DNA of 64,000 nt from Escherichia phage vB_EcoM-P3322. The notes under the pieces are model-generated. The model saw nothing but the letters and a program-made list of their open reading frames with translations, searched no databases and was not told the origin of the DNA. Where the stretch lies: sequence record PV191315.1; one strand, 5' to 3'. Shown piece after piece: positions 1,772-61,217 of this stretch; position 1 is the stretch's first letter; each line of letters begins with the position of its first letter. Position numbers and translations under genes: made by a program.

Positions 1772-2650
1772 ATGTTTGTAAAATCTTTTAAATCCGCTCT
1801 GCCTATGGTTGTTGGTGACAATGCTTCTGTAGCATCCCTTAACAGCATTACAGATATTCCTCTGGAATTTGTAACAGCAGAAGGCTCCCAGTCACACACT
1901 ATTGGTCTTGTTCGTTTCGAAGATGACTCTAAATTTGTAAAAGAGTTCTCAGATCTTGAACTGCTTAATGTAGGTCAATCTGTGAAGAAGGTAGATAAAA
2001 AGAAAGTTAAACGTATTCTGAATGAACGTCTAGAAGAAATGCGTCAGGACATGGAGAGCGAAGGTAAAGAGTTTTATGTCGATAAAGAAGTAGTCAAAGC
2101 AATGAAGGAAGATATTGAATTTGCACTATTGCCTGAAACAGAACCTGAAGATTTCTTTAACTATGTTGTCTTGGATAAAACTACGAATCTTCTTTATGTT
2201 CTTAATGGAAGTAAAAAGGTCGCAGAAGAGATTACTTCTTTCCTCCGTTCAGTTCTGGGGACTTTCCCTTCGGTAGGTTTTAGTGTGCATGAAGAAGCTA
2301 TTGTAAAAGGTTTTGGTGAATTGCTGGAGAATCACGAAGCAGATCGTATTACTCTCGGAAATTATATCAAAATGGAGGATAGCGAGGGCGTTGTTGTTTG
2401 GAGTAAAGAATCCCTATACGAGTCTAAAGCTGTCGAACTAAAAGAAGATGGTAAAGATGTTGTTGCAATCGGTCTTGAATATGACGGTGTTGTAGATTTT
2501 GTAGTGGATAAAGAGTTTAAACTTTCTAAACTACGTTTTCCGAAATATTTTGCAGACGAAGAAGGTAGTATTGAAGCTTCAGTCCTTCTGTGCTTCAATG
2601 AGATTCGAGGTCTGATGGAAGATTTAACCAAAGCAACAATCCTTAAATAA
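1772..2650 (+). CDS. rdgC: RdgC-like recombination-associated protein
   Basis: Strong RBS AGGAGG; ~290 aa; several blocks align by eye with E. coli RdgC (LLPE..D.T..L..V, KLS.LRF). Confidence 0.5.
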   Translation: MFVKSFKSALPMVVGDNASVASLNSITDIPLEFVTAEGSQSHTIGLVRFEDDSKFVKEFSDLELLNVGQSVKKVDKKKVKRILNERLEEMRQDMESEGKEFYVDKEVVKAMKEDIEFALLPETEPEDFFNYVVLDKTTNLLYVLNGSKKVAEEITSFLRSVLGTFPSVGFSVHEEAIVKGFGELLENHEADRITLGNYIKMEDSEGVVVWSKESLYESKAVELKEDGKDVVAIGLEYDGVVDFVVDKEFKLSKLRFPKYFADEEGSIEASVLLCFNEIRGLMEDLTKATILK

Positions 2651-5915: not shown

Positions 5916-6470
5916 ATGTGGGGTGAAGGAACACCCTGGAAAACACAAGCTGAATTTTATACTTATCTTAGGGGATGTTTTAGAAAAGCATGGATGAGAC
6001 ACCCTAATAAAATTAAGGTTATCAATGCAAGGCGTTTTAAAGTTGATCGTGTAGATAAAGACGGCAATGTAATGATAGACAAGAAAACTGGAAAACCAAA
6101 ACAAGTTTGGAATTGTGAGTGCGAAATATGTGGACACAGAGGAGGAATGAAAGACTTCCAAGTGGATCATATTCACGCAGCAAAACAACTTCAATGTTTT
6201 GAGGATATTCCCCTTTTTGTTTTCCGTTTGATCTATGTGAAAGAAGAAGATTTGCGAATGGTTTGTAAATTGTGCAACTCTATTCTTGCTTATGCAGACA
6301 AGCAAGGCATATCTTTTGAAGAAGCAAAAGCTGAAAAAGAAGCGATAGCTTTGTGTAGAGCTAAGAAAGATAAAGCGTGGCTGAAGAAGCGTAAAATAGA
6401 ACCTGAAAGCACAGTAGCAAAACGCCGTAAACAAATAGTCAAAATCCTATTGCAGGAAATTGAAAGTTAG
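5916..6470 (+). CDS. HNH-family endonuclease
   Basis: C-x2-C...DHIH...C-x2-CN zinc/HNH pattern; ATG 5916 after AGGTGA (TTG 5895 alternative). Confidence 0.55.
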   Translation: MWGEGTPWKTQAEFYTYLRGCFRKAWMRHPNKIKVINARRFKVDRVDKDGNVMIDKKTGKPKQVWNCECEICGHRGGMKDFQVDHIHAAKQLQCFEDIPLFVFRLIYVKEEDLRMVCKLCNSILAYADKQGISFEEAKAEKEAIALCRAKKDKAWLKKRKIEPESTVAKRRKQIVKILLQEIES

Positions 6471-6506
6471 TATAAGATAACTATACTAAAAGAGAGAGGA
6501 GGTTTT

Positions 6507-13104: not shown

Positions 13105-14097
13105 ATGCGCTATCTGGTAACAGGTGGTCTTGGTTTTATTGGGAGTGCCGTGGTGCGCTCTCTTTGTCAAGATCCTAATAACGAAGTTTTTGTCGTTGAT
13201 AAGATGGGCTATGCAGCAGATATTGAGAATGTAGGCGATATCACTCACGTTAAACTAAGCATGACAGATTTGGCAAACGAAACCCAGGTCAAAAGTTTAG
13301 TAGTAGAGTGCAATCCTGACTTCATCATTCACTTAGCGGCAGAAAGTCATGTGGATAATTCTATCAAGAATCCACGAGTTTTCATCGACTCCAATATTAT
13401 CGGTACATACAATTTATTGGAAGCTGCAAGGCTCCTCCCAAAAAATAAACTGAAGATGTTCGTACACGTCTCCACAGACGAAGTGTACGGCGATATGGCA
13501 GACTCTGGCGTTCCCTTTACCGAAGAGACAGCTTATGCCCCTTCAAGCCCGTACAGTGCGTCTAAAGCAGCATCTGACCATCTTGTGAAAGCTTGGCACC
13601 GCACCTACGATTTGCCTGTTGTGATAACCAACTGCTCCAATAACTTTGGGCCTTATCAACATCCAGAAAAGCTGATCCCAAAAATCATCACAAGTATCTT
13701 GACGAATAAAGAGATTCCGGTGTATGGTAAAGGCGACCAGGTGCGAGACTGGCTTTTTGTTGAGGATCATGCGCGAGCTATTCTTCAAGTGGCAACAGGT
13801 GGAGAACCAGGTCAAACGTATAATGTTGGAACACGTAATCCCAAAACCAATATGGAGATCATCTATATGGTTTGTGACTATATGGATACTGTACATCCAG
13901 AAGCAGTAACCTACCCTTCTTCCAACTTGATAACTTTTGTTGAAGATCGTAAAGGACATGACTTGCGTTATGAAATCAATCCTTCTAAGATAGAGTCTGA
14001 ACTGGGCTGGAGTGCAAACTCTACATTTGAACAAGATCTCTACTCAACGATTGAATGGTACTTAAACAACCCTCAATGGTGGAGTGAGAAAATTTAA
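13105..14097 (+). CDS. rfbB: dTDP-glucose 4,6-dehydratase
   Basis: [10 protein letters not shown] Rossmann motif, YSASK catalytic motif, RmlB-like length. Confidence 0.9.
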
Positions 14098-14105
14098 GGA
14101 GGGTT

Positions 14106-14984
14106 ATGAAAGGTATTATTTTGGCGGGAGGAAGTGGAACCCGCCTTCATCCGGTAACACGCAGTGTGAGCAAGCAATTGCTCCCTGTGTATGACAAACC
14201 CATGATCTACTACCCTTTATCGGTATTGATGTTGGCTGACATTAAGGATATTTTAATCATCACCACACCAGGTGATCAGGAAGACTTTCAGTATCTTCTC
14301 GGAGATGGGTCTATGTTTGGAATAAAACTCACTTACGCAATCCAATCCGAGCCACGAGGTCTTGCGGAAGCTTTCATCATAGGTAAAGATTTTATCGGAG
14401 AAGACTCTGTTGCTCTTATTTTAGGTGACAACCTATTCTTCGGACAAAGCTTTGGTAAACTACTGATTAACGCCAGTGAGATGGTAGATGTTTGGGGAGG
14501 AGCTTGTATTTTCGGGTATTTGGTGAAAGATCCTGAACGATTCGGTGTGGTTGAATTTGGGAGTAATCGTCAAGCTATTTCTATTGAAGAGAAACCTGAA
14601 AATCCTAAATCAGATTATGCTGTCACAGGTTTGTATTTCTATGATAACTCTGTTATTCAACGTGCATTAGAAGTAACCCCTTCCGCGCGTGGAGAACTGG
14701 AGATCACTGATATCAATCGCAGCTACCTAGAAGACAGGAAGTTACAAGTGGAAGTTCTCGGACGAGGATTTACTTGGCTTGACACAGGAACACACGCCAG
14801 TCTGATGGAAGCTGGTCAATTCGTGCAGACTATTGAGAACTGTCAAGGATTGAAGATTGCGTGCCTGGAAGAAATTGCTTTCAAAAAAGGGTGGATTTCT
14901 TTAGAGACTTTGGTGTATCATGGAAACTCACTGAAGAAAACAGAGTACGGGCAATACCTACTCAAATTAGCGGAGAGAAAATGA
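14106..14984 (+). CDS. rfbA: glucose-1-phosphate thymidylyltransferase
   Basis: [16 protein letters not shown]...[17 protein letters not shown] signature. Confidence 0.92.
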
Positions 14985-15547
14985 AAGTAGAAAAAACAAA
15001 AATTGAAGGTGCGGTAATTATCAAACCAGACGTTTATAAAGATGATCGTGGTTTCTTTCTAGAAACATATAATGAACAAAAATACGAAGATATTATTGGT
15101 AGACAAACTTTCGTTCAAGATAACATGTCTAAATCAAACTTCGGTGTTTTGCGAGGAATGCACTTTCAAACAAATAACCCGCAAGGTAAGCTAGTTCGTT
15201 GTGTAAGTGGGGAAGTATTGGATTTCGCTGTAGATTTACGTAAAGATAGTCCAACTTACGGTGCTTGGGACGGTGTTGTTCTTCGTGCACGACACCATAC
15301 GCAGTTTTGGCTTCCGCCTGGTTTGGCTCATGGTTTTATAGTTTTGAGTATGGATGCTATCTTTGAATACAAATGCACAACTCCATACGACCCTTCTAGT
15401 GAACAAAGTTTACGTTGGGATGATCCTGATATAGGGATCGATTGGGGCTTCGATATGATTTTTGACGAAGGTTTTAAACCTATTCTATCAACAAAAGATG
15501 CAATGGCTAAATCTTTTCAACAGTTACGTAGCGAGGGTGTATGCTAA
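14981..15547 (+). CDS. rfbC: dTDP-4-dehydrorhamnose 3,5-epimerase
   Basis: ATG overlaps rfbA stop (ATGA); RmlC-like DDRGFF and cupin motifs; track start 14861 is an upstream GTG. Confidence 0.88.
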
Positions 15548-16382
15548 CATATCTGGTATTGGGCGGTAATGGACAACTGGGACAAGCTTTACGTAAAGTG
15601 GCTCCTTCAAATGTATCTTTAATTTATCCTAAAGAACGTGTAGATATTACAAATTTTGAAGCTGTGCGAAACGCTATTATTGAAGATTATGTAGATGGTG
15701 TTATTAATTGCGCCGCTTATACGGCTGTAGATAAAGCAGAACATGATTTTGCTACTGCTTTGGCTGTTAATGCGTATGGACCTGCAAATATTGCGGCAGT
15801 GTGCAGCAAACTTAAAATTGATTTTGTGCATATTTCTACAGACTATATTTTTAATTATTCTCATCCTATTTTTGAAGATACTACACCTAACCCAATAAAC
15901 AATTATGGGTATACGAAAGAACTTGGTGAAAAATGGTGCGAGGAGTTAACCCAAATGCATATATTATTCGAACAGCCTCGGTATATAGCGAATTTGGAAA
16001 TAACTTTCTAAAAACCATGTTGTCTCGCTATAATGATGGACAACGTGATTTTATTATTGTTGCTGATCAGTTCTCTTGTCCAACATATGCTCCAGATTTA
16101 GCAGAAGCTATTTTTGAAGTATTAAAAACAGGTTGGTCAAGGTCTATTAAGACTTACCATTTTGCAGGAAGCCATCTTATTTCTTGGGCGGAGTTTGCGG
16201 AAAAGATCTTGACACAGATGCCAGAACCTGTTAAGATATCGGCGGTATCAGCTTCAACCTACAATGCTCCAGCAGCACGTCCGGTGAAGTCACAACTAGT
16301 AACCAGTCACTATCTTACAAAATCAGATTTAAATAAAGGTATTGAACAGTCTTTAGCAGTATTACTTAATAAGGAGAGGTAA
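15541..16382 (+). pseudogene. rfbD: dTDP-4-dehydrorhamnose reductase, interrupted by 1-nt frameshift in A5 run near 15928-15933
   Basis: N-terminal half (15541..16011) and C-terminal half (15933..16382) in different frames; together colinear with RmlD. Confidence 0.75.
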
Positions 16383-19329: not shown

Positions 19330-19335
19330 CAAACT

Positions 19336-19355
19336 GCCCCTTCGGGGGCATTTCT
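19336..19355 (+). terminator. stem-loop terminator
   Basis: gcccc-ttcg-ggggc then atttctt. Confidence 0.6.
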
Positions 19356-20799: not shown

Positions 20800-20994
20800 A
20801 TGCAGAGCGGAGAAGAACTTTTAGAGAAACAATTCTCAACGCGTCAACAAGCTTTAAGTTATATGGTTTTTCTAAGCAATCTTGATGTGAATGAGATACT
20901 TTTACGGCGCGAAGGTAATTTCTGGAGCGTTAAATATCATGCAACAAGGTCTGTAATCTACCTGGAAGAGGCGGAATTCTCTTTGGTAGAATGA
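20800..20994 (+). CDS. hypothetical protein
   Basis: RBS AAGGAGGG. Confidence 0.5.
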   Translation: MQSGEELLEKQFSTRQQALSYMVFLSNLDVNEILLRREGNFWSVKYHATRSVIYLEEAEFSLVE

Positions 20995-21008
20995 TCCGAG
21001 GAGTAGTT

Positions 21009-21581
21009 ATGCGTTCAACTTTCACTGGCAAAATAAATGCTGGTTTGATTTTTACAGCAGTAAGCATTCTTAGCAAAAAGTTTAAAGTTGTTAACTTACC
21101 TGTGTGTGTCGATTTCGATCATGTTTTTGATCCTTCGAACCCCACTCGTTGCATAGTAAGGAGTAATGTTGAAAACCCAACAGAAAATCTTTTTTATGTA
21201 ACAAAACCATCTCAAAGCATACTTAACCAGGTTGAGGCGAAATTGATACCTAACGGTAAATATTACTCCTTTTTACCTTGTAAGTCGGTTGAAGTAGAGA
21301 ATAGCAATACTTTCGCTAATAACTTGTCTGTATTCGTTTTCTTTGTTTCACAGGAAGACGAAACAGATGAAATGGTAGCAACAGTGAGATCACTTTATGA
21401 CTCTTTAGGGGTTGTTTATAGTCAACAAGTGTGCGAAAATAATAAAGCCTGTGTAGATTTCATTATCAACGGTATTTGTGTTTGTAGAGTAGAATCTTTT
21501 TGGCTGCACGATACATATGTGACTGTAGCAGAGGTTATATCTGAACCAAGATTTAGTCATGCGGTTTCGTTAATAATTTGA
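21009..21581 (+). CDS. hypothetical protein
   Basis: ATG 21009 after GAGGAG. Confidence 0.55.
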   Translation: MRSTFTGKINAGLIFTAVSILSKKFKVVNLPVCVDFDHVFDPSNPTRCIVRSNVENPTENLFYVTKPSQSILNQVEAKLIPNGKYYSFLPCKSVEVENSNTFANNLSVFVFFVSQEDETDEMVATVRSLYDSLGVVYSQQVCENNKACVDFIINGICVCRVESFWLHDTYVTVAEVISEPRFSHAVSLII

Positions 21582-21591
21582 GGAGGAAGGA

Positions 21592-21921
21592 ATGGAAATT
21601 ACTACAGAACAAGCCCTTATCGACGAGGGTCGTAAAATCTTAGAAAAGTATTTAGGGGAGATTCATAAAACCCCTGGCTATTTGGGTTGGAGAATTGTTG
21701 AAGCTGTAGATTTCCTTCCTCGTAACAGTAAAAACGTCGAAATGCGATCTCTTTTCTTATTAGTAAAGGTGGATGGGGATACGCCTTTTAAAGATGCCGC
21801 AGAACATATTGAAAAAGTTGAAGAGAAAGCTTATGCAGAATTTGCCGATCTTGTTTTAGAACAAGAGATTGAAGGAAAGGTGAATATTTTTATTTTCTTA
21901 GATTTTGAGGAGGATAAGTGA
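21592..21921 (+). CDS. hypothetical protein
   Basis: RBS GAGGAGGAAGG. Confidence 0.55.
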   Translation: MEITTEQALIDEGRKILEKYLGEIHKTPGYLGWRIVEAVDFLPRNSKNVEMRSLFLLVKVDGDTPFKDAAEHIEKVEEKAYAEFADLVLEQEIEGKVNIFIFLDFEEDK

Positions 21922-22661
21922 TCATACACAGAGAAATTACTGTTAAAAGCGATCAAGATCTTTTTATAATTGGAGATCTACACGGTTGTTATAATTTGTA
22001 TGAAAAAGGAAAGGCAAAGTTAGGTATCCGAGATACAGATGTGGTTGTATCTCTAGGAGATCTTACTGACCGTGGAAAGCAAAACTTTCGTTGTGTTTTA
22101 GAATTTACTCGTAAACACAATCGCTACGCTATTCGTGGCAATCATGAAGACATGATGATTAAAGGTATGCTGGAAGGAGATCGTAGCTACTACGAGTGTT
22201 GGTATCAAAATGGAGGATATACGGTCTTTGAAGAATGTGGTGAAGAAGGAGCTACAGCCTTAGCAATGATGACAGAAGATTTACCTGTTGTTCTCATTGT
22301 TAACTACAGAGGCATGAAACTTGCGTTTATTCATGGTGGGTATCCATCTTCTTTGGAATATCTCCCTGTAACAGATATTCCAGAATACATTTCGAAGATG
22401 ACAAAAACACAGGAAAACCGTTTTGCTGAAGCACTTATGTGGGACAGAGATATGGTAGACTGTGCTAAAGAGGGAATGAAACTTCCTGTTGTGATGGGTG
22501 TGGATTATGTGTTTCATGGACACTCTTATGTAAAAACACCTATTATCAATGCGAATCGTGTTTATATGGATACTGGATCTGTGTTCAATAATAACTTAAC
22601 ATTTGCTTATTTCGATATGGACGGTGGTCTTCAATTTTATTCAACTCTTGAGGAGGATTAA
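21918..22661 (+). CDS. Ser/Thr protein phosphatase (calcineurin-like metallophosphoesterase)
   Basis: GDLHG, GDLTDRG, GNHE motifs. Confidence 0.8.
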   Translation: MIIHREITVKSDQDLFIIGDLHGCYNLYEKGKAKLGIRDTDVVVSLGDLTDRGKQNFRCVLEFTRKHNRYAIRGNHEDMMIKGMLEGDRSYYECWYQNGGYTVFEECGEEGATALAMMTEDLPVVLIVNYRGMKLAFIHGGYPSSLEYLPVTDIPEYISKMTKTQENRFAEALMWDRDMVDCAKEGMKLPVVMGVDYVFHGHSYVKTPIINANRVYMDTGSVFNNNLTFAYFDMDGGLQFYSTLEED

Positions 22662-22969
22662 TGTATAAGATTACAATTATTCAAAGTGTAGGTAATATCC
22701 GTAAAGAAGTTATCTTAGAAACAGAAGATGTTAATCTTGTTCGTGAGATTGTTCTTAAGGAAGATAACCTGCAAGCTGTAGAATCAGATGCACCGAATCT
22801 TATGGTGGATCAAGAATATTCTGAACTTCGTCGTATTTTTGAAGAGATTCAGAAGAAAGAAACACAACCTACCATAAAACCTTTTGGTCCTTATGATCCG
22901 AGCAATCCTAGCAGTCCTTGGATCATGAGAAATACGGAACCCTATACACCTTTTGAAATTACTTGTTGA
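22661..22969 (+). CDS. hypothetical protein
   Basis: RBS GAGGAGG; ATG overlaps stop. Confidence 0.55.
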   Translation: MYKITIIQSVGNIRKEVILETEDVNLVREIVLKEDNLQAVESDAPNLMVDQEYSELRRIFEEIQKKETQPTIKPFGPYDPSNPSSPWIMRNTEPYTPFEITC

Positions 22970-22976
22970 GGTGATT

Positions 22977-23558
22977 ATGGCAGAACTGTTCTATACGGGA
23001 GTTGGAAGTAGGGACATATCTGAAGAAGAGTGGGCTTTGATGGTAGGCATAGGGAAATGGCTTTCAAACCTTGGGTTTAAATTACGGTCTGGGAAGGCAG
23101 AGGGTAGTGATTCTGCTTTTGAAACAGGTGTCCAAGAGTCTGAAAATCCTACTAACAAGGAGATTTATGTTCCTTGGGAAAATTTCAAAGGTAATCAGAT
23201 TCCAGGTGATGTTATTGTTCTTGCAAAACCAGATACAATGAACTATGCTATCTCTGTGCAATGGATCAAAGATGTTCACCCAGCTTATGAAAAGCTTAAG
23301 CAGGGTGCTAGAAAATTGCACCAACGTAATGTGCATCAAGTGTTAGGCAGAGATTTGGAGAATCCTGCTCCATCATGTTTCTTGTTGGCTTGTGCTAATA
23401 CTGATAAATATGGAGATGCAAAAGGTGGAACAGCTACGGCTTGGAAGATAGCTAAAGCCAATAATGTTCCTTGTTTAAACATTCGTGGGAAAACAAAACA
23501 AGAGATTTACGATTTTCTACGACCTTTGGTAATGAGGGCGATAACAAGTGATTCCTAG
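22977..23558 (+). CDS. DprA/SLOG-like Rossmann-fold protein
   Basis: GVGSRDIS...G..L..LGFKLRSGKAEGSDSA resembles DprA/LOG core; ATG 22977 after GAGGTGA. Confidence 0.45.
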   Translation: MAELFYTGVGSRDISEEEWALMVGIGKWLSNLGFKLRSGKAEGSDSAFETGVQESENPTNKEIYVPWENFKGNQIPGDVIVLAKPDTMNYAISVQWIKDVHPAYEKLKQGARKLHQRNVHQVLGRDLENPAPSCFLLACANTDKYGDAKGGTATAWKIAKANNVPCLNIRGKTKQEIYDFLRPLVMRAITSDS

Positions 23559-24060
23559 ACGTAAACGTGGTGAACAAAGAACAAACTTGGCAGAAATCTT
23601 AGATTACAACATGGTTAATGATGTGACAAAAGAAATTCTGCCTGTTGTAGAAGATATTCTTCGTAGAGGGTTACGATTCTGCTCGGATCGGGTGCATTTC
23701 ATGTGGACACATAAAAGTGACTCCGCTTTGAATTTCTATCCTTTGGACTATACTCTGAACAATACAGAGATGAAAGATATCAACAAATATTTAATGGGAT
23801 ATAAAGATATAACCGAAACTGTTCTTGGAGAATTGGCAGAAATCTTGGCTAACGATATCCTTAGAAATATTAATAAGGCTCTTGACAGAAGCCCAGCAGG
23901 AGTAGTAATATCTTTTGCTGTGCCAGATATGGTTAAATATGAGTCTACAATACCTAATAAAGCTTATGCCTTTCTTCGGAGAGACGTTCGTGGAAATGTG
24001 TTGGAGATGGAGTCAAACTACAAGATTGAGGAGGTTTTATGGCAGAGTTCGGATCAGTAA
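23548..24060 (+). CDS. hypothetical protein
   Basis: Track ORF; start uncertain (ATG 23608 alternative). Confidence 0.5.
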   Translation: MIPRRKRGEQRTNLAEILDYNMVNDVTKEILPVVEDILRRGLRFCSDRVHFMWTHKSDSALNFYPLDYTLNNTEMKDINKYLMGYKDITETVLGELAEILANDILRNINKALDRSPAGVVISFAVPDMVKYESTIPNKAYAFLRRDVRGNVLEMESNYKIEEVLWQSSDQ

Positions 24061-25299: not shown

Positions 25300-25322
25300 A
25301 ACCCGCTTCGGCGGGTTTTTTA
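25300..25322 (+). terminator. rho-independent terminator
   Basis: aacccgc-ttcg-gcgggtt then tttttt. Confidence 0.7.
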
Positions 25323-25381: not shown

Positions 25382-26323
25382 ATGGTGTTAATTGGTAGCC
25401 GTGCATTACAAATTCATGCTATGGACATGGGAAAAGACTTGTATCGCCCTTGTGTAGATTTAGATTACCTGTGTACAGAACAAGAGTGGGAAGAATTATC
25501 AAAAATGTTCTCTCAAGACGAGTTTGTTGAACTTGTAGAACGTAAAGGGAACAAAGGCCATGTCAAAATGATAGCTGGTGCACATTTGGAATACGATATT
25601 GCTTCTCAAGGAGATAGCACAGAAGCTTTGATTAGTTATTGTGAAGATTCTGATGATGTTCGTCGAACTTACGCTGGACATGTTGTTGCTCCTTTAGATG
25701 TGCTCTACCTTCTTAAAATGAGTCATCGTTTTAAAAAGGATAGTCCTCACTTCTTTAAAACTATGAAAGATATTCATTTCATGCGGTCACTGGGCGCAAA
25801 GATCCCAGAAAATCTTAAGAGTATTTATGAGTTGCGTGAGAAAGAAACATACACTTACTCTCATCCTAACTTAAACGTAAAAAGTAAAGAGTTCTTTAAA
25901 GGTGACGAGGTTCCGTATGTTTATGATCATGATTCTATCCATGAAGCAATCGCGTTAATGGATGCTCCAGCATATAAATCTTATATGAAAGATGGAAGTG
26001 AAGTTATGACCAGCAAAGAAAAGTTTTTTGCTCAACCAAAACATGTGCGCCTGTTAGGTGTTTATGAAGAAGCGTGTGTTTTGGCTTTGGAACGTTCACA
26101 AATTCCTTTCGGTGGAGAGATCGGAGGTCCAACCCCTAAGCAAAGTTTTATAATGGCTTTATCTAAAGTCTGCACATCCATCACTAGTGGTTGGTTTAGG
26201 GAATATGCTTGGGAAAACTTTTATGTTGTTATTAAGCTATATGAAAACATGGGCGAAAACGACTATGTTGAACGTTTTAAAGCTAATCAACATGTAGTAA
26301 AGCCTTTTGAAGGAGGTTATTAA
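25382..26323 (+). CDS. hypothetical protein (possible Pol-beta-type nucleotidyltransferase fold)
   Basis: RBS AGAGGAG; N-terminal IGSRA...DLD pattern, weak. Confidence 0.55.
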   Translation: MVLIGSRALQIHAMDMGKDLYRPCVDLDYLCTEQEWEELSKMFSQDEFVELVERKGNKGHVKMIAGAHLEYDIASQGDSTEALISYCEDSDDVRRTYAGHVVAPLDVLYLLKMSHRFKKDSPHFFKTMKDIHFMRSLGAKIPENLKSIYELREKETYTYSHPNLNVKSKEFFKGDEVPYVYDHDSIHEAIALMDAPAYKSYMKDGSEVMTSKEKFFAQPKHVRLLGVYEEACVLALERSQIPFGGEIGGPTPKQSFIMALSKVCTSITSGWFREYAWENFYVVIKLYENMGENDYVERFKANQHVVKPFEGGY

Positions 26324-26324
26324 T

Positions 26325-26720
26325 ATGTGTGGATATCTTTCAGAAAGTTATTTCAAAGTGACGCATGAGGATTTAGAAAAAGCACGATTGAAACTGACAG
26401 CTATTATTGAATACTCTAATACTGTTGAACACAGATTAAAGACTACTAAAGTATCTGTTCCTTGTTGGTTAGGTTTACGGCATAAAATAATGTCTCAACA
26501 TGACCATGTTGTTCGAGAGATGCATGGTTGGTGTTGGTTTCACGATGTGGCTCTGCATTTTGGTTATATTACAGAAGAAGAGCATAGATTCTGTGAACTA
26601 ACATATCGTATTCCAACCCTTCACGATTTAGATTTGTGGAAGAAAGCAAACGAGATTTTTCTTACAGAAAGTGATTGGCGTAAAGTTATGGCTTGTCTTG
26701 AATGGAGGGGTAATGAGTAA
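26325..26720 (+). CDS. hypothetical protein
   Basis: ATG 26325 after GAAGGAGG. Confidence 0.5.
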   Translation: MCGYLSESYFKVTHEDLEKARLKLTAIIEYSNTVEHRLKTTKVSVPCWLGLRHKIMSQHDHVVREMHGWCWFHDVALHFGYITEEEHRFCELTYRIPTLHDLDLWKKANEIFLTESDWRKVMACLEWRGNE

Positions 26721-27396
26721 AACAGTTTTGTCTATGTTTGACGGATCTGGGATCATGGTGTTACGTTATGCCGAAGCAGGTCACAAGTGTTTTTGTGTAA
26801 ACGCTGATGAAGGGGATCACGGTAAATACGAGGTTAGGATGGAGCACCCAAACATAACCTATGTGAATGCCTGGATAGATTCTACATTCAACCCTGAAGA
26901 TCATGGGATACCTAAACCCGATATTATTTTTGGATTTCCACCTTGCACTATGTTAGCAGGTAGTGGTAGCAAACACGAACGTAGCACAGAGGAATTAGAT
27001 GAAGCTTTAGCTAATATTCGTGTAGTGGAAGCTTTGGGTAACAAATATAATGTTCCTTGGATGATTGAAAACCCAGTAGGTAAACTTTCAACCTTATGGC
27101 GTAAACCCGATTTTTACTTTGATCCTTATGAGTATGGTGGGTATTTGTTTGAAGAGGAAGGAAGCTTTCATCCTAAAATGCCTACCCGTGATGGGTATAC
27201 AAAGAAAACTTGTATTTGGCACGGCAATGGTTTTGTTCAACCAGTGAAGAAACCAGTAGATCATATAGGCTGCTTCTGGGGTTGGAAAAGCTTAGGCGGA
27301 GCTAGTGCAAAAACAAAACAACTTAGATCCCTAACCGCACGTGGTTTTGCTCGTGCCGTGTTTTTGTCTAACAATCTTCTAGATAAGGAGAAATAA
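26713..27396 (+). CDS. C5-methyltransferase-like protein (short, PPCT in place of PCQ)
   Basis: FDGSG (motif I-like), FGFPPCT (motif IV-like), ENPVG (motif VI-like); ATG 26713 after GGAGGGG. Confidence 0.5.
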   Translation: MSKTVLSMFDGSGIMVLRYAEAGHKCFCVNADEGDHGKYEVRMEHPNITYVNAWIDSTFNPEDHGIPKPDIIFGFPPCTMLAGSGSKHERSTEELDEALANIRVVEALGNKYNVPWMIENPVGKLSTLWRKPDFYFDPYEYGGYLFEEEGSFHPKMPTRDGYTKKTCIWHGNGFVQPVKKPVDHIGCFWGWKSLGGASAKTKQLRSLTARGFARAVFLSNNLLDKEK

Positions 27397-28107: not shown

Positions 28108-28593
28108 ATGTTTCAAGTAAATGTCAATGTGCATAATAGTTACTCTGATTGTGAAACGTGTGGCTATAATTCATCTAATGTTATTCGTATTAGTGGCGAT
28201 TTAGGAGAAGCTTCTTTTGGAGAAGAAGCAAGTTGCTTTAGTGGTATGGATGCAGAATGGAATGATATTGCACATTGGTTAGTGAGCAAACTAAAAGAAA
28301 AAGAGAAACCATTTCCTACTCTGCTTGATCGTTCTCTTGTGGAAGATGCAGGTAAAGCATATGCAGACTATGCGTATGCAGACGGGAAATATTTGGAAGA
28401 TGATAAGGCTAACCATTTGCTTTATGTTTACTATGAAGCTGAATCTGCCTACGATAATTATTACAGCATGTCTAACATCCTACGTCTGTTTGCAGAGTTT
28501 GATATTTATTTCGAAGTAGAATTTTCAGAAGATGATACTTACGAGTACAATTCTTATGATCCATTTGAGGAGGAAGAATGCCAAGACGAGTGA
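28108..28593 (+). CDS. hypothetical acidic protein
   Basis: RBS AGGAGGG. Confidence 0.55.
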   Translation: MFQVNVNVHNSYSDCETCGYNSSNVIRISGDLGEASFGEEASCFSGMDAEWNDIAHWLVSKLKEKEKPFPTLLDRSLVEDAGKAYADYAYADGKYLEDDKANHLLYVYYEAESAYDNYYSMSNILRLFAEFDIYFEVEFSEDDTYEYNSYDPFEEEECQDE

Positions 28594-29393
28594 TTTTTGT
28601 AAGCGGTGCAGGTTTAAGTGCAGACAGTGGGATTCGAACATTTAGAACAGACACAGATAGTGGTCGTGCTTTATGGGAAGAATATGATTTAGAAGAGGTC
28701 TGCGATATTGGAGCTTTCCAGGCAGGTTATCGTGTTAGAACATCTCCAGATCTTCCAGTGGTCGGTGGTGTAGACGAGAACGGTATGGATTTGTATGCCA
28801 AAACACACGAATTTTATAACAAAAGACGTGTTGAGCTTAAAGATGTACAACCTAATGCTGCACATATTCAAATAGCAAAGTGGTTTAAGGAATATCCTAA
28901 CCAAATAGTAAACTTGACAACAAACGTTGATGATCTACTAGAGCGAGCAGGTGTAGACAGAGATTCTGTTATTCACGTACACGGATATCTTCCTGAAGTA
29001 GTTTACCGTATGCATCCTGGAGATTACAAAACACTGGTAGATATTGGTTACAATAGTATAAACATAGATGATTATAACTGGGTGAAGCCTAATGTTGTAT
29101 TTTTTGGTGAGGCTGCACCTTTGTATGCAGATATGGCTCACTTGTTTGATACTTTGACCATGCAAGATTTGGTTGTTGTAGTGGGATGTTCAAACCAAGT
29201 TATCAATTTTAATTGGGAATTGTTCCCTGCACTTAGTATGGGTACAAAAATGATTGTTGTTAACCCAGGAATTAATTACGAAGAAACTCTTCTTTACGAA
29301 GATAGAGGAGTCTTTGTTTACCGAGAAAAAGCTGCAACAGCCTTCAGTAATGAAGGTTTCATTAAAATGGTCGAAGACCACTTAAACAAATAA
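28578..29393 (+). CDS. Sir2-family (sirtuin-like) NAD-binding protein
   Basis: GAGLSADSGIRTFR and TTNVDDLLERAG...HVHG resemble Sir2 motifs; RBS GAGGAGGAAG. Confidence 0.7.
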   Translation: MPRRVIFVSGAGLSADSGIRTFRTDTDSGRALWEEYDLEEVCDIGAFQAGYRVRTSPDLPVVGGVDENGMDLYAKTHEFYNKRRVELKDVQPNAAHIQIAKWFKEYPNQIVNLTTNVDDLLERAGVDRDSVIHVHGYLPEVVYRMHPGDYKTLVDIGYNSINIDDYNWVKPNVVFFGEAAPLYADMAHLFDTLTMQDLVVVVGCSNQVINFNWELFPALSMGTKMIVVNPGINYEETLLYEDRGVFVYREKAATAFSNEGFIKMVEDHLNK

Positions 29394-29436: not shown

Positions 29437-29709
29437 ATGACTGAAGAAATCCGTGATTACTACCTTGCACATTACGTTTACTACTTTGCTAATGCTACAC
29501 AAAAAGGGGAAGGTAATCTTTACTTGGCAACAGGACATGGAACAGGCGTTAGGAAATCAAATATTGATAATGCCTTGGCTCAAGTGGCTGCGGGGCTAGA
29601 AGATAAACTTCAAACACCTGTAGTTGTAGTGATGCAAAATATAAGTTACCTAGCAAGTTGTACTGAAACCGAATTTAACGCGTCTGAGACGCAATCTAAC
29701 GAAGAATAA
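29437..29709 (+). CDS. hypothetical protein
   Basis: RBS TAGGAG. Confidence 0.55.
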   Translation: MTEEIRDYYLAHYVYYFANATQKGEGNLYLATGHGTGVRKSNIDNALAQVAAGLEDKLQTPVVVVMQNISYLASCTETEFNASETQSNEE

Positions 29710-29712
29710 AAC

Positions 29713-29745
29713 AAAGGCACCCAAGTGGGTGCCTTTTCTATTTTA
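29713..29745 (+). terminator. rho-independent terminator at end of + strand block
   Basis: ggcaccc-aagt-gggtgcc then ttttctatttt. Confidence 0.65.
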
Positions 29746-29778
29746 GAGCGTCTCTGTTCGATTTAGGTGGGTTCTAGC

Positions 29779-30009
29779 TTACTTGTGTAGTGCTCTCTCG
29801 TATAACTCAATGATCAATTCATCCTCTACTGTAATACGCGCCATTTGATCCGTCTTAAGTATTGTTGGTTGGTAGTGGTGCATTTCACTATTGATACTGC
29901 AATCCCATTCGTCATAACCTAAATACTCTCCTACATGGACCTTAACCATAAAGGGAAACGGGTTATCTACCAAAAATGCCATACAACCTTCTTCGATTTT
30001 ATTTAACAC
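29779..30009 (-). CDS. hypothetical protein
   Basis: Track ORF; first gene of minus block. Confidence 0.45.
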   Translation of the reverse strand: MLNKIEEGCMAFLVDNPFPFMVKVHVGEYLGYDEWDCSINSEMHHYQPTILKTDQMARITVEDELIIELYERALHK

Positions 30010-60674: not shown

Positions 60675-61217
60675 TCACAAATATCGTCTTTGCGGTATTT
60701 TGTCTGGGAAAAGTATTTCGATCAGTTTGTTATGATATTTGCCTAAAAGATTCTGCCCTTTCCAGGTGGCAGGGTTTAGCACCCCTGGTTCATACATCCC
60801 CATTCCAATTCCGTAAACCTTATCGTAGGGGCTTGCTTCAACAAACGTTTTGTATTGGTAAAGGTGTAAGTCTGCATACAAATCTGGATTCTGTACATAT
60901 TTCAAGCATAAACCTCGCATAACAATACGCTCACGGTTCTCTTCCCATACGTTGTTATCAAAATCCGACACTGCCCTACCCATACGTTTGTAATAAGCTT
61001 GGATCTTCTCATCTTTCCGTATCAAACTATGAGTCAGAATAGCCTGTGCAGTGTTGTGGTCATTAAAAAGCAAAGCTTTACGCCACATCATGTATTGTTC
61101 GACACAATTAAATGTCTGATTGTAACCTGGTTCGGTTTCTGTAAAGGGTGCAATATACCAATTACTAAAAACATCTTTATGTGAAAAGAAGAATACATAT
61201 TCGTCAGTTATTCTCAT
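60675..61217 (-). CDS. NADAR-domain (YbiA-like) protein
   Basis: 180 aa; N-terminal FFFSH..FSNWY and central NCVEQYMMWRKALLF resemble the NADAR/DUF1768 signature (recall only). Confidence 0.6.
   Translation of the reverse strand: MRITDEYVFFFSHKDVFSNWYIAPFTETEPGYNQTFNCVEQYMMWRKALLFNDHNTAQAILTHSLIRKDEKIQAYYKRMGRAVSDFDNNVWEENRERIVMRGLCLKYVQNPDLYADLHLYQYKTFVEASPYDKVYGIGMGMYEPGVLNPATWKGQNLLGKYHNKLIEILFPDKIPQRRYL

Follow-up and report, generated by a model that had tools for sequence, protein, structure and literature searches.

SLOG domains encoded by viruses have been described in a survey of viral nicotinamide adenine dinucleotide (NAD) and ADP-ribose metabolism, in which the domains Macro, NADAR, SLOG and Nudix co-occur and fuse, together with DUF4326, and in which viral SLOGs, most of them placed in a YpsA-like clade, were proposed to sense or cleave ADP-ribose derivatives (Iyer, Burroughs, Anantharaman and Aravind 2022, PMC9503650). 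The same group has proposed that the DprA/Smf copies of jumbo phages are extra single-stranded DNA (ssDNA)-binding mediators (PMC7824862), and ShosA, a DprA-like protein of a defence system, binds both ssDNA and RecA (PMC12961424). Of the enzymes found in this company, NADAR takes ADP-ribose off guanine in DNA (PMC11543638), the NADAR protein gp30.3/AdfN of phage T4 defeats DarTG1 by removing ADP-ribose from DNA (PMC11825919), and the phage Macro protein Adpp feeds the NARP1 pathway (bioRxiv 10.64898/2026.01.28.702374). The gene compared with these systems here lies at 22977..23558 (+) of a 64,000-nucleotide stretch of Escherichia phage vB_EcoM-P3322 (PV191315.1), referred to as the window, and encodes a SLOG protein of 193 amino acids (aa) belonging to PHROG 768, a family named "DprA-like DNA recombination-mediator protein". 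The gene is already catalogued and the link between viral SLOGs and ADP-ribose is already published (PMC9503650); what is added is that PHROG 768, as judged from its sequences, is a DprA-clade family yet bears an ADP-ribose fusion signature.

The 193-aa protein matches PHROG 768 at E 7.2e-62, and the orthologue in the RefSeq versions of related phage genomes is already named likewise, or "DprA-like RecA mediator". A search of 5.8 billion proteins returned 276 homologues, mostly of 170-210 aa and without names, while a profile built from an alignment of 43 diverse family members retrieved 5,933 cluster representatives at a cut-off of E<=1e-3, of which 1,947 reach E<=1e-30. By tblastn, relatives were found in 1,437 of 50,697 phage records (~2.8%), one of them phiKZ gene 207, and also in 29 plasmids. 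The open reading frame (ORF) is therefore not a chance frame, and the motifs quoted for it in the first-pass annotation, GVGSRDIS (aa 8-15) and LGFKLRSGKAEGSDSA (aa 32-47), are real. From these motifs a DprA/SLOG-like Rossmann fold had been proposed, with structure prediction and profile comparison as checks and an unrelated fold as the outcome that would overturn it. The structure model is a confident SLOG domain with a three-layer alpha/beta Rossmann-like arrangement, and its nearest structural neighbours are SLOG proteins: the MoCo carrier protein (score 16.1), DprA from two species (15.6 and 15.2), TM1055 and LOG enzymes (13.4-14.9), ShosA (13.3), YpsA (12.7) and the ThsA SLOG domain with 3'cADPR, a cyclic ADP-ribose (10.9). 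The proposed fold is thus correct, and profile comparison by hhalign matched DprA over aa 8-56 only.

The conserved columns of the family alignment lie on the loops of this fold. The loop after strand 1 (22998..23012, +) carries G8-x-G10-S11-R12, the 'GSR' motif, in which G10 and R12 are family-invariant and which aligns with the GSR of E. coli Smf and of the DprA structures 3maj and 3uqz. The loop after strand 2 (23085..23129, +) holds the invariant columns R37-S-G39-x-A41-x-G43-x-D45-x-A47-F...G51 and is the equivalent of DprA SGLARGID. Strand 3 and its loop, as delimited by the secondary structure of the model (23160..23186, +), contain E62-x-Y64-x-P66-W67-x-x-F70 with an invariant W67, and manual comparison with Smf shows that Y64-x-P66 resembles the YP motif of DprA. 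A family-specific insertion of ~25 aa with a conserved HPAW motif carries an additional helix; its end and the helix that follows (23277..23348, +) include H101-P of HPAW, G110-A111 and L114-H115-x-R117-N118-x-x-Q121-x-x-G124, where manual motif alignment suggests that the R117-N118 pair corresponds to FPxRNR of DprA. The second glycine-rich loop (23424..23453, +), G150-G151-T152-x-T154-A155...A159, is by comparison with Smf the counterpart of DprA SGSLxT and LOG PGGxGT. Both G8-x-G10-S-R12 and G150-G151-T152-x-T154 are invariant or nearly so in the 43 sequences. The protein is a single domain, with neither a SAM-like N-terminal nor a DML1 winged-helix C-terminal domain.

Function is best informed by domain fusions, which were surveyed in the best 150 of the 5,933 family representatives and in the plasmid matches. 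All identifiable fusion partners in this set are ADP-ribose-processing domains, and the fusion proteins belong to the family by its profile or by PHROG 768 at E 1e-48 to 1e-66. NADAR is fused to SLOG in four proteins (P0139, P0218, P0121 and P0122), the last two of which are ~1,480 aa long and additionally carry YAcAr and LDcluster4 SLOG domains, and DUF4326 is fused to SLOG in P0204. A canonical Macro domain accompanies SLOG (aa 59-249, E 4.9e-49) in a 415-aa Erythrobacter plasmid protein, and a second plasmid match (H87) is macro domain-containing by annotation only. Two further partners, both devoid of a Pfam or PDB sequence match, are the C-terminal PHROG 2072 domain (A1S_2505) of P0118 and P0207, recognised by structure as a compact macro-like family that is otherwise unannotated, and PHROG 9995, a recurrent N-terminal partner of ~125 aa in P0219 and P0227. 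No recombination or DNA-binding domain was present among the identifiable partners. Since partners that remove ADP-ribose recur, a role in countering NAD/ADP-ribose immunity is likelier than RecA loading. Like the viral SLOGs described by Iyer et al. 2022 (PMC9503650), the protein is a stand-alone SLOG of a large tailed phage whose family is also fused to Macro, NADAR and DUF4326.

Gene neighbourhoods point in the same direction. ORFs within 10 kb on either side of the SLOG gene were clustered for 80 IMG/VR loci, three contigs and the window, and the 83 loci were grouped at 60% SLOG identity into 40 groups. At least one NAD/ADP-ribose gene was found within 10 kb in 16 of the 40 groups, with Macro in seven, an NAPRTase-like gene in seven, a Prs-like gene in six, A1S_2505 in four, NADAR in two and Sir2 in one, the lineage group of the source phage itself. 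Where present, Macro always lies within 2.8 kb of the SLOG gene (seven groups) and NADAR within ~1 kb (two groups), while A1S_2505 is fused to or abuts SLOG in three of its four groups; the association with Macro, NADAR or DUF4326, by fusion or by short distance, that is expected of viral ADP-ribose-linked SLOGs is therefore seen at the level of the family. Several loci have the order Prs-NAPRTase-Macro-x-SLOG, and Prs and NAPRTase pairs like those of NARP1 recur, an arrangement that resembles the NARP1 NAD-reconstitution pathway with the Macro phosphatase Adpp (bioRxiv 10.64898/2026.01.28.702374). Also recurring near SLOG are a 5'-3' exonuclease, a CCA-adding enzyme, ThyX and RNA ligase, together with a dCMP deaminase and a KxDG-motif ligase that were recognised solely by reading their sequences.

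These observations are best accounted for, with moderate confidence, by a nucleotide-binding module linked to ADP-ribose that takes part in counter-defence alongside Macro and NADAR enzymes. The stand-alone DprA-clade SLOG domain would be produced by an auxiliary operon, early or middle, of a Phapecoctavirus, and a pocket at the C-terminal edge of its beta-sheet, lined by the family-invariant residues G10/R12, R37/G39/D45, W67, H115/R117/N118/Q121 and G150/G151/T152/T154, would hold a phosphate-bearing nucleotide, one carrying ADP-ribose or derived from it. The ligand may be ssDNA or an ADP-ribosylated base on it, in keeping with the DprA ancestry and with the NADAR and DarG-like partners, which are directed at DNA, or else a soluble breakdown or signal product of NAD, in keeping with NARP1/Adpp among the neighbours and with the polyproteins that hold several SLOGs. 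Together with the de-ADP-ribosylases Macro and NADAR of the phage, the protein would blunt host immunity based on NAD or ADP-ribose, be it DNA ADP-ribosylation of the DarTG type, TIR/Thoeris signals or NAD depletion. More tentatively, PHROG 768 as a whole may be a phage and plasmid counter-defence class, rather than one of recombination mediators, that operates in either of two modes. In the first, the DprA-derived pocket would recognise ADP-ribosylated bases in ssDNA and guide or assist the hydrolases Macro and NADAR against toxins of the DarT type; in the second, it would bind or cleave ADP-ribose molecules derived from TIR or RES activity, such as cADPR isomers, thereby quenching Thoeris-like signalling or turning non-canonical NAD breakdown products into ADP-ribose for NARP1.

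The source phage is an E. coli myovirus, phAPEC8-like, of the genus Phapecoctavirus (Stephanstirmvirinae). Escherichia phage vB_EcoM_01 (genus Phapecoctavirus) shares 99.9% identity with a 2.2-kb query around the SLOG gene, and 50 deposited phage records share at least 99% with it. In the window, a Sir2-family, NAD-dependent protein of 271 aa is encoded at 28578..29393 (+; PF02146 E 1.9e-22), unlinked to the SLOG gene and 5 kb off, and a NADAR-domain protein of 180 aa, also unlinked, at 60678..61217 (-; PF08719 E 7.8e-36). The latter was located by a Pfam scan of all ORFs and a motif search and then confirmed; it was not recovered by phmmer with the NADAR segments of the fusion proteins, and a Pfam scan of the ten ORFs near the SLOG gene gave no NADAR or Macro there. 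The phage DIJ07P1 (Phapecoctavirus), 99.6% identical over the query stretch, encodes SLOG, NADAR, Sir2, the phosphatase and a small metallophosphoesterase, as well as a Macro protein of the NARP1-linked type (E 2e-50). As Macro, NADAR and Sir2 are dispersed, their link to SLOG in this phage is one of co-occurrence only. The window NADAR is the same domain as T4 gp30.3/AdfN, and the ESCO13 RefSeq record lists most ORFs of the corresponding region as hypothetical. The Sir2 gene is followed by a 90-aa ORF (29437-29709) that is Sir2-like according to ESCO13 RefSeq.

Several points weigh against a counter-defence role. The SLOG gene is not beside Macro or NADAR in this phage, NADAR being 37 kb away on the opposite strand and Macro outside the window, and the Prs/NAPRTase pair of NARP1 is absent from the DIJ07P1 genome. 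Most family members are stand-alone, fusions forming a small minority of the best 150 representatives; the neighbour counts were made without a matched background across groups that are not phylogenetically independent, and large phages cluster auxiliary nucleotide-metabolism genes together anyway. The nearest family by sequence is DprA, an ssDNA binder without a known ADP-ribose link, and the data fit ADP-ribosylated ssDNA and a soluble ligand alike, as they do binding and catalysis. A literature search found no paper that studies a SLOG or DprA-like protein encoded by a phage experimentally.

The foremost alternative is that the protein is a minimal DprA, which would bind ssDNA, dimerise and load host RecA or a phage recombinase for recombination-dependent replication or repair of phage DNA. 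The SLOG clades are not told apart by structure alone, so the clade was assigned from sequence, where several results favour DprA. PF02481 (DprA) is the closest Pfam family, matched weakly by 38 of the 43 members (best E 2.6e-7), with LDcluster4 weak in six and STALD in one, and the LOG (PF03641), MoCo-carrier and YpsA models in none. Against an alignment of 25 DprA sequences, the family alignment reached a probability of 89.6% and E 1.9e-6 by hhalign, although over 49 columns (aa 8-56), that is, the first two motifs; the C-terminal half was left unaligned and residue equivalences there come from manual motif matching. By eye, the later motifs follow in DprA order (E-x-Y-x-P-W for YP, L-H-x-R-N for F-P-x-R-N-R, K-G-G-T-A-T-A for R-S-G-S-L-x-T), so that the phage protein shares GSR, SGxAxGxD, Y-x-P, R-N and (S/G)GxxxT with DprA/Smf (PF02481, TIGR00732; PDB 3maj, 4ljk and 3uqz; E. 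coli Smf). The invariant Arg of GSR and the R-N pair coincide in motif alignment with the reported ssDNA-binding Arg residues of H. pylori DprA and ShosA (PMC12961424). In comparisons of the family profile with single sequences, E. coli Smf reached E 1.5e-3 and the LOG enzyme PpnN E 0.32, and PDB sequences gave DprA weakly, through the N-terminal motif (E 0.016). A selenophosphate synthetase returned by single-sequence phmmer against PDB sequences was rejected as a chance match.

The similarity to DprA nevertheless falls short of family membership. The 193-aa protein scores 12.7 bits for PF02481 against a cut-off of 29.6 bits (E 0.074, aa 9-52 only), and no NCBIfam model matches it at E<=1. 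Of the residues invariant in the 25 DprA sequences (among them H152, S194-E195, F207, P208, R210, N211 and R212), the family has not kept the His at D+4 (H152), S194-E195 after strand 4, F207-P208 before RN, or R212, the third residue of RNR. With these losses, the family-specific HPAW insertion and the lack of SAM and DML1 domains, the protein is best assigned from its sequence to the DprA clade of SLOG domains and not to the DprA family proper. Not every DprA protein carries the SAM and DML1 accessory domains. The isoelectric point is near neutral in the family (median ~7.7-7.9), compared with 9.2 in the Smf Rossmann domain, a difference that leans away from DprA but does not discriminate between hypotheses. 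RecA/UvsX, UvsY and SSB are not among the recurrent neighbour clusters that could be named, and the genomic company of the family consists of ADP-ribose/NAD genes rather than the competence or recombination genes of DprA/Smf. A mediator function would agree with the proposal made for jumbo-phage DprA/Smf (PMC7824862) and with the position of one plasmid copy near an SRAP peptidase gene and ssb; on balance it appears unlikely, and the protein is probably not a canonical RecA-loading DprA. Support for the label "recombination mediator", as read from the sequences, ends at motif-level and sub-threshold similarity to DprA.

In plasmid pNL1 (NC_009426.1; locus L092), a conjugative MOBF plasmid, the SLOG homologue at 5992-6504 is accompanied by DUF736, an SOS-response-associated (SRAP) peptidase, a thermonuclease and ssb, a layout reminiscent of a leading-region or anti-defence gene set. 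The window also encodes an RdgC-like protein (PF04381 E 7.5e-22), probably at 1772-2650 (+) by ESCO13 coordinates, where the corresponding ESCO13 gene is annotated in RefSeq as 'exonuclease recombination-associated'. RdgC modulates RecA, a point that would matter if the SLOG protein acted as a RecA mediator.

Comparison with SLOG proteins of bacterial immunity sets the phage protein apart as well. In the ShosTA anti-phage system, the DprA-like antitoxin ShosA (PDB 8zva) is host-encoded, has ~300 aa or more with a SAM domain, and has a phosphoribosyltransferase toxin as partner, whereas the phage protein consists of a bare domain of 193 aa without a toxin partner nearby. The SLOG domain of ThsA, the 3'cADPR sensor of Thoeris (PDB 7uxs), is a more distant structural match and is fused to a SIR2 effector, whereas Sir2 in the window is a separate gene 5 kb off. 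With STALD weak in a single member of the 43, its sequence does not place the phage protein in the ThsA type, and nor does a fused effector (SIR2, TIR or Macro).

A further possibility is that the protein is a LOG-like or other nucleotide N-glycosidase, or another nucleotide-pool enzyme of ordinary phage metabolism, unrelated to ADP-ribose or immunity. A single pocket lined by many invariant polar residues is enzyme-like, and the SLOG gene stands in a long plus-strand operon of auxiliary genes including ribonucleotide reductase (RNR), ThyX, PhoH and methyltransferases. Nucleotide metabolism also recurs among the neighbours within 10 kb across the family, with PhoH in 13 of the 40 groups and the RNR large subunit in nine, besides dCMP deaminase and ThyX. 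However, the catalytic Glu of the LOG motif PGGxGTxxE is absent from the phage family, where position 157 is N or K, a difference from the LOG/PpnN nucleotide phosphoribohydrolases and the MoCo carrier protein (PDB 2iz5, 1rcu and 5wq3) as a comparison group, and both the blank for the Pfam LOG model and the E-value for PpnN, far behind that for Smf, speak against a LOG enzyme. The distances between PhoH and SLOG look scattered over the 10 kb on either side, three adjacent cases excepted, and the repeated NADAR and Macro fusions would be left unexplained. A purely metabolic role is accordingly considered rather improbable.

The surroundings of the gene bear on the remaining proposal, that of a dedicated host-signalling interference module formed with the adjacent Ser/Thr phosphatase and the flanking ORFs. 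As the first-pass annotation stated, the neighbours are a phosphatase and unknowns. Two genes 5' of the SLOG gene and in the same operon is a NinI/PrpA-like calcineurin-type phosphatase of 247 aa (21918..22661, +; PF00149 E 2.7e-13; PHROG 246 E 1.8e-75), with a sub-cut-off NCBIfam match to PrpA/B-like proteins and a weak resemblance to ApaH/PrpE dinucleoside-polyphosphatases, which suggests that it could act on nucleotides. A 102-aa ORF (PHROG 15301; 22661..22969, +) lies between the two genes, and a 170-aa ORF (PHROG 8569; 23548..24060, +) begins 11 nucleotides before the end of the SLOG gene; neither flanking ORF has a Pfam family above threshold. The SLOG gene starts with ATG at 22977 and its coordinates include the stop codon; a longer start at TTG 22953 is possible but unlikely. 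Direct reading shows a Shine-Dalgarno-like GAGGTGA at 22968..22974 (+), which overlaps the stop codon of the upstream ORF and corresponds in position to a ribosome binding site annotated in ESCO13. Terminator-like hairpins found by consensus scan only, at 19335..19350 (+) and 25300..25317 (+), are the probable upstream and downstream limits of the transcription unit.

The four genes are tightly packed between these hairpins, with overlaps or 7-nucleotide junctions. The gap between phosphatase and SLOG gene is 172-400 bp in the lineage of the phage itself, where SLOG identity is 58-66%, and in one distant group, L057, where it is 39%, so that close proximity, of about 300 bp, is confined to these among the 40 groups compared; the phosphatase is within 1.3 kb of SLOG in four of the six groups that have one. 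Such a phosphatase nonetheless occurs within 10 kb in only six of the 40 groups, the PHROG 15301 and 8569 ORFs are absent from the listed recurrent neighbour clusters, no SLOG-metallophosphatase fusion was seen in the fusion survey, and a second family, a 184-aa metallophosphoesterase within 10 kb in nine groups, is mostly 4-8.5 kb from the SLOG gene, with a single exception at 288 bp, all of which makes a dedicated phosphatase module very unlikely. Of the role suggested at first, the part that concerns nucleotide-based conflict agrees with the NADAR, Macro and DUF4326 fusions, the phosphatase module is weakly supported by its six groups, and the flanking ORFs do not recur in the neighbour clusters listed.

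For the window alone, this is an ordinary case of a catalogued fold correctly recognised. The family, however, spans phiKZ, T4-like Klebsiella phages, Pakpunavirus-like Pseudomonas phages, and phAPEC8- and rV5-like therapeutic candidates, all relatives to which annotation pipelines give the label "DprA-like DNA recombination mediator". If the family is indeed part of an NAD/ADP-ribose counter-defence toolkit, the DprA label misleads and also conceals a candidate gene, anti-DarTG, anti-Thoeris or NARP1-accessory, that existing assays could test.

Other features of the window were recorded in passing. Upstream of the phosphatase gene, the 196-aa product of 20991-21581 (+) matches PHROG 4806, 'histidyl tRNA synthetase', a name copied by RefSeq; the label looks unreliable because it is without Pfam support and the ORF is far too short. 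No tRNA genes were found in the 64-kb window. Downstream of the SLOG unit, a 313-aa DUF7277 and DUF7275 protein (25382-26323, +; E 1e-75), to which no function is assigned, is encoded between that unit and a DNA methyltransferase-like gene at 26671-27396 (PHROG 757; sub-threshold Pfam). At ~13105-16382 (+) lies a dTDP-rhamnose pathway that looks complete, comprising glucose-1-phosphate thymidylyltransferase, a dehydratase/epimerase, a 3,5-epimerase and an RmlD-like reductase, the RmlD frame being apparently split into ORFs 15541-16011 and 15933-16382. At ~29700-30000 both the GC skew and the coding strand switch, from plus-strand to minus-strand genes, and a perfect bidirectional hairpin at 29713-29736 is probably a convergent terminator.

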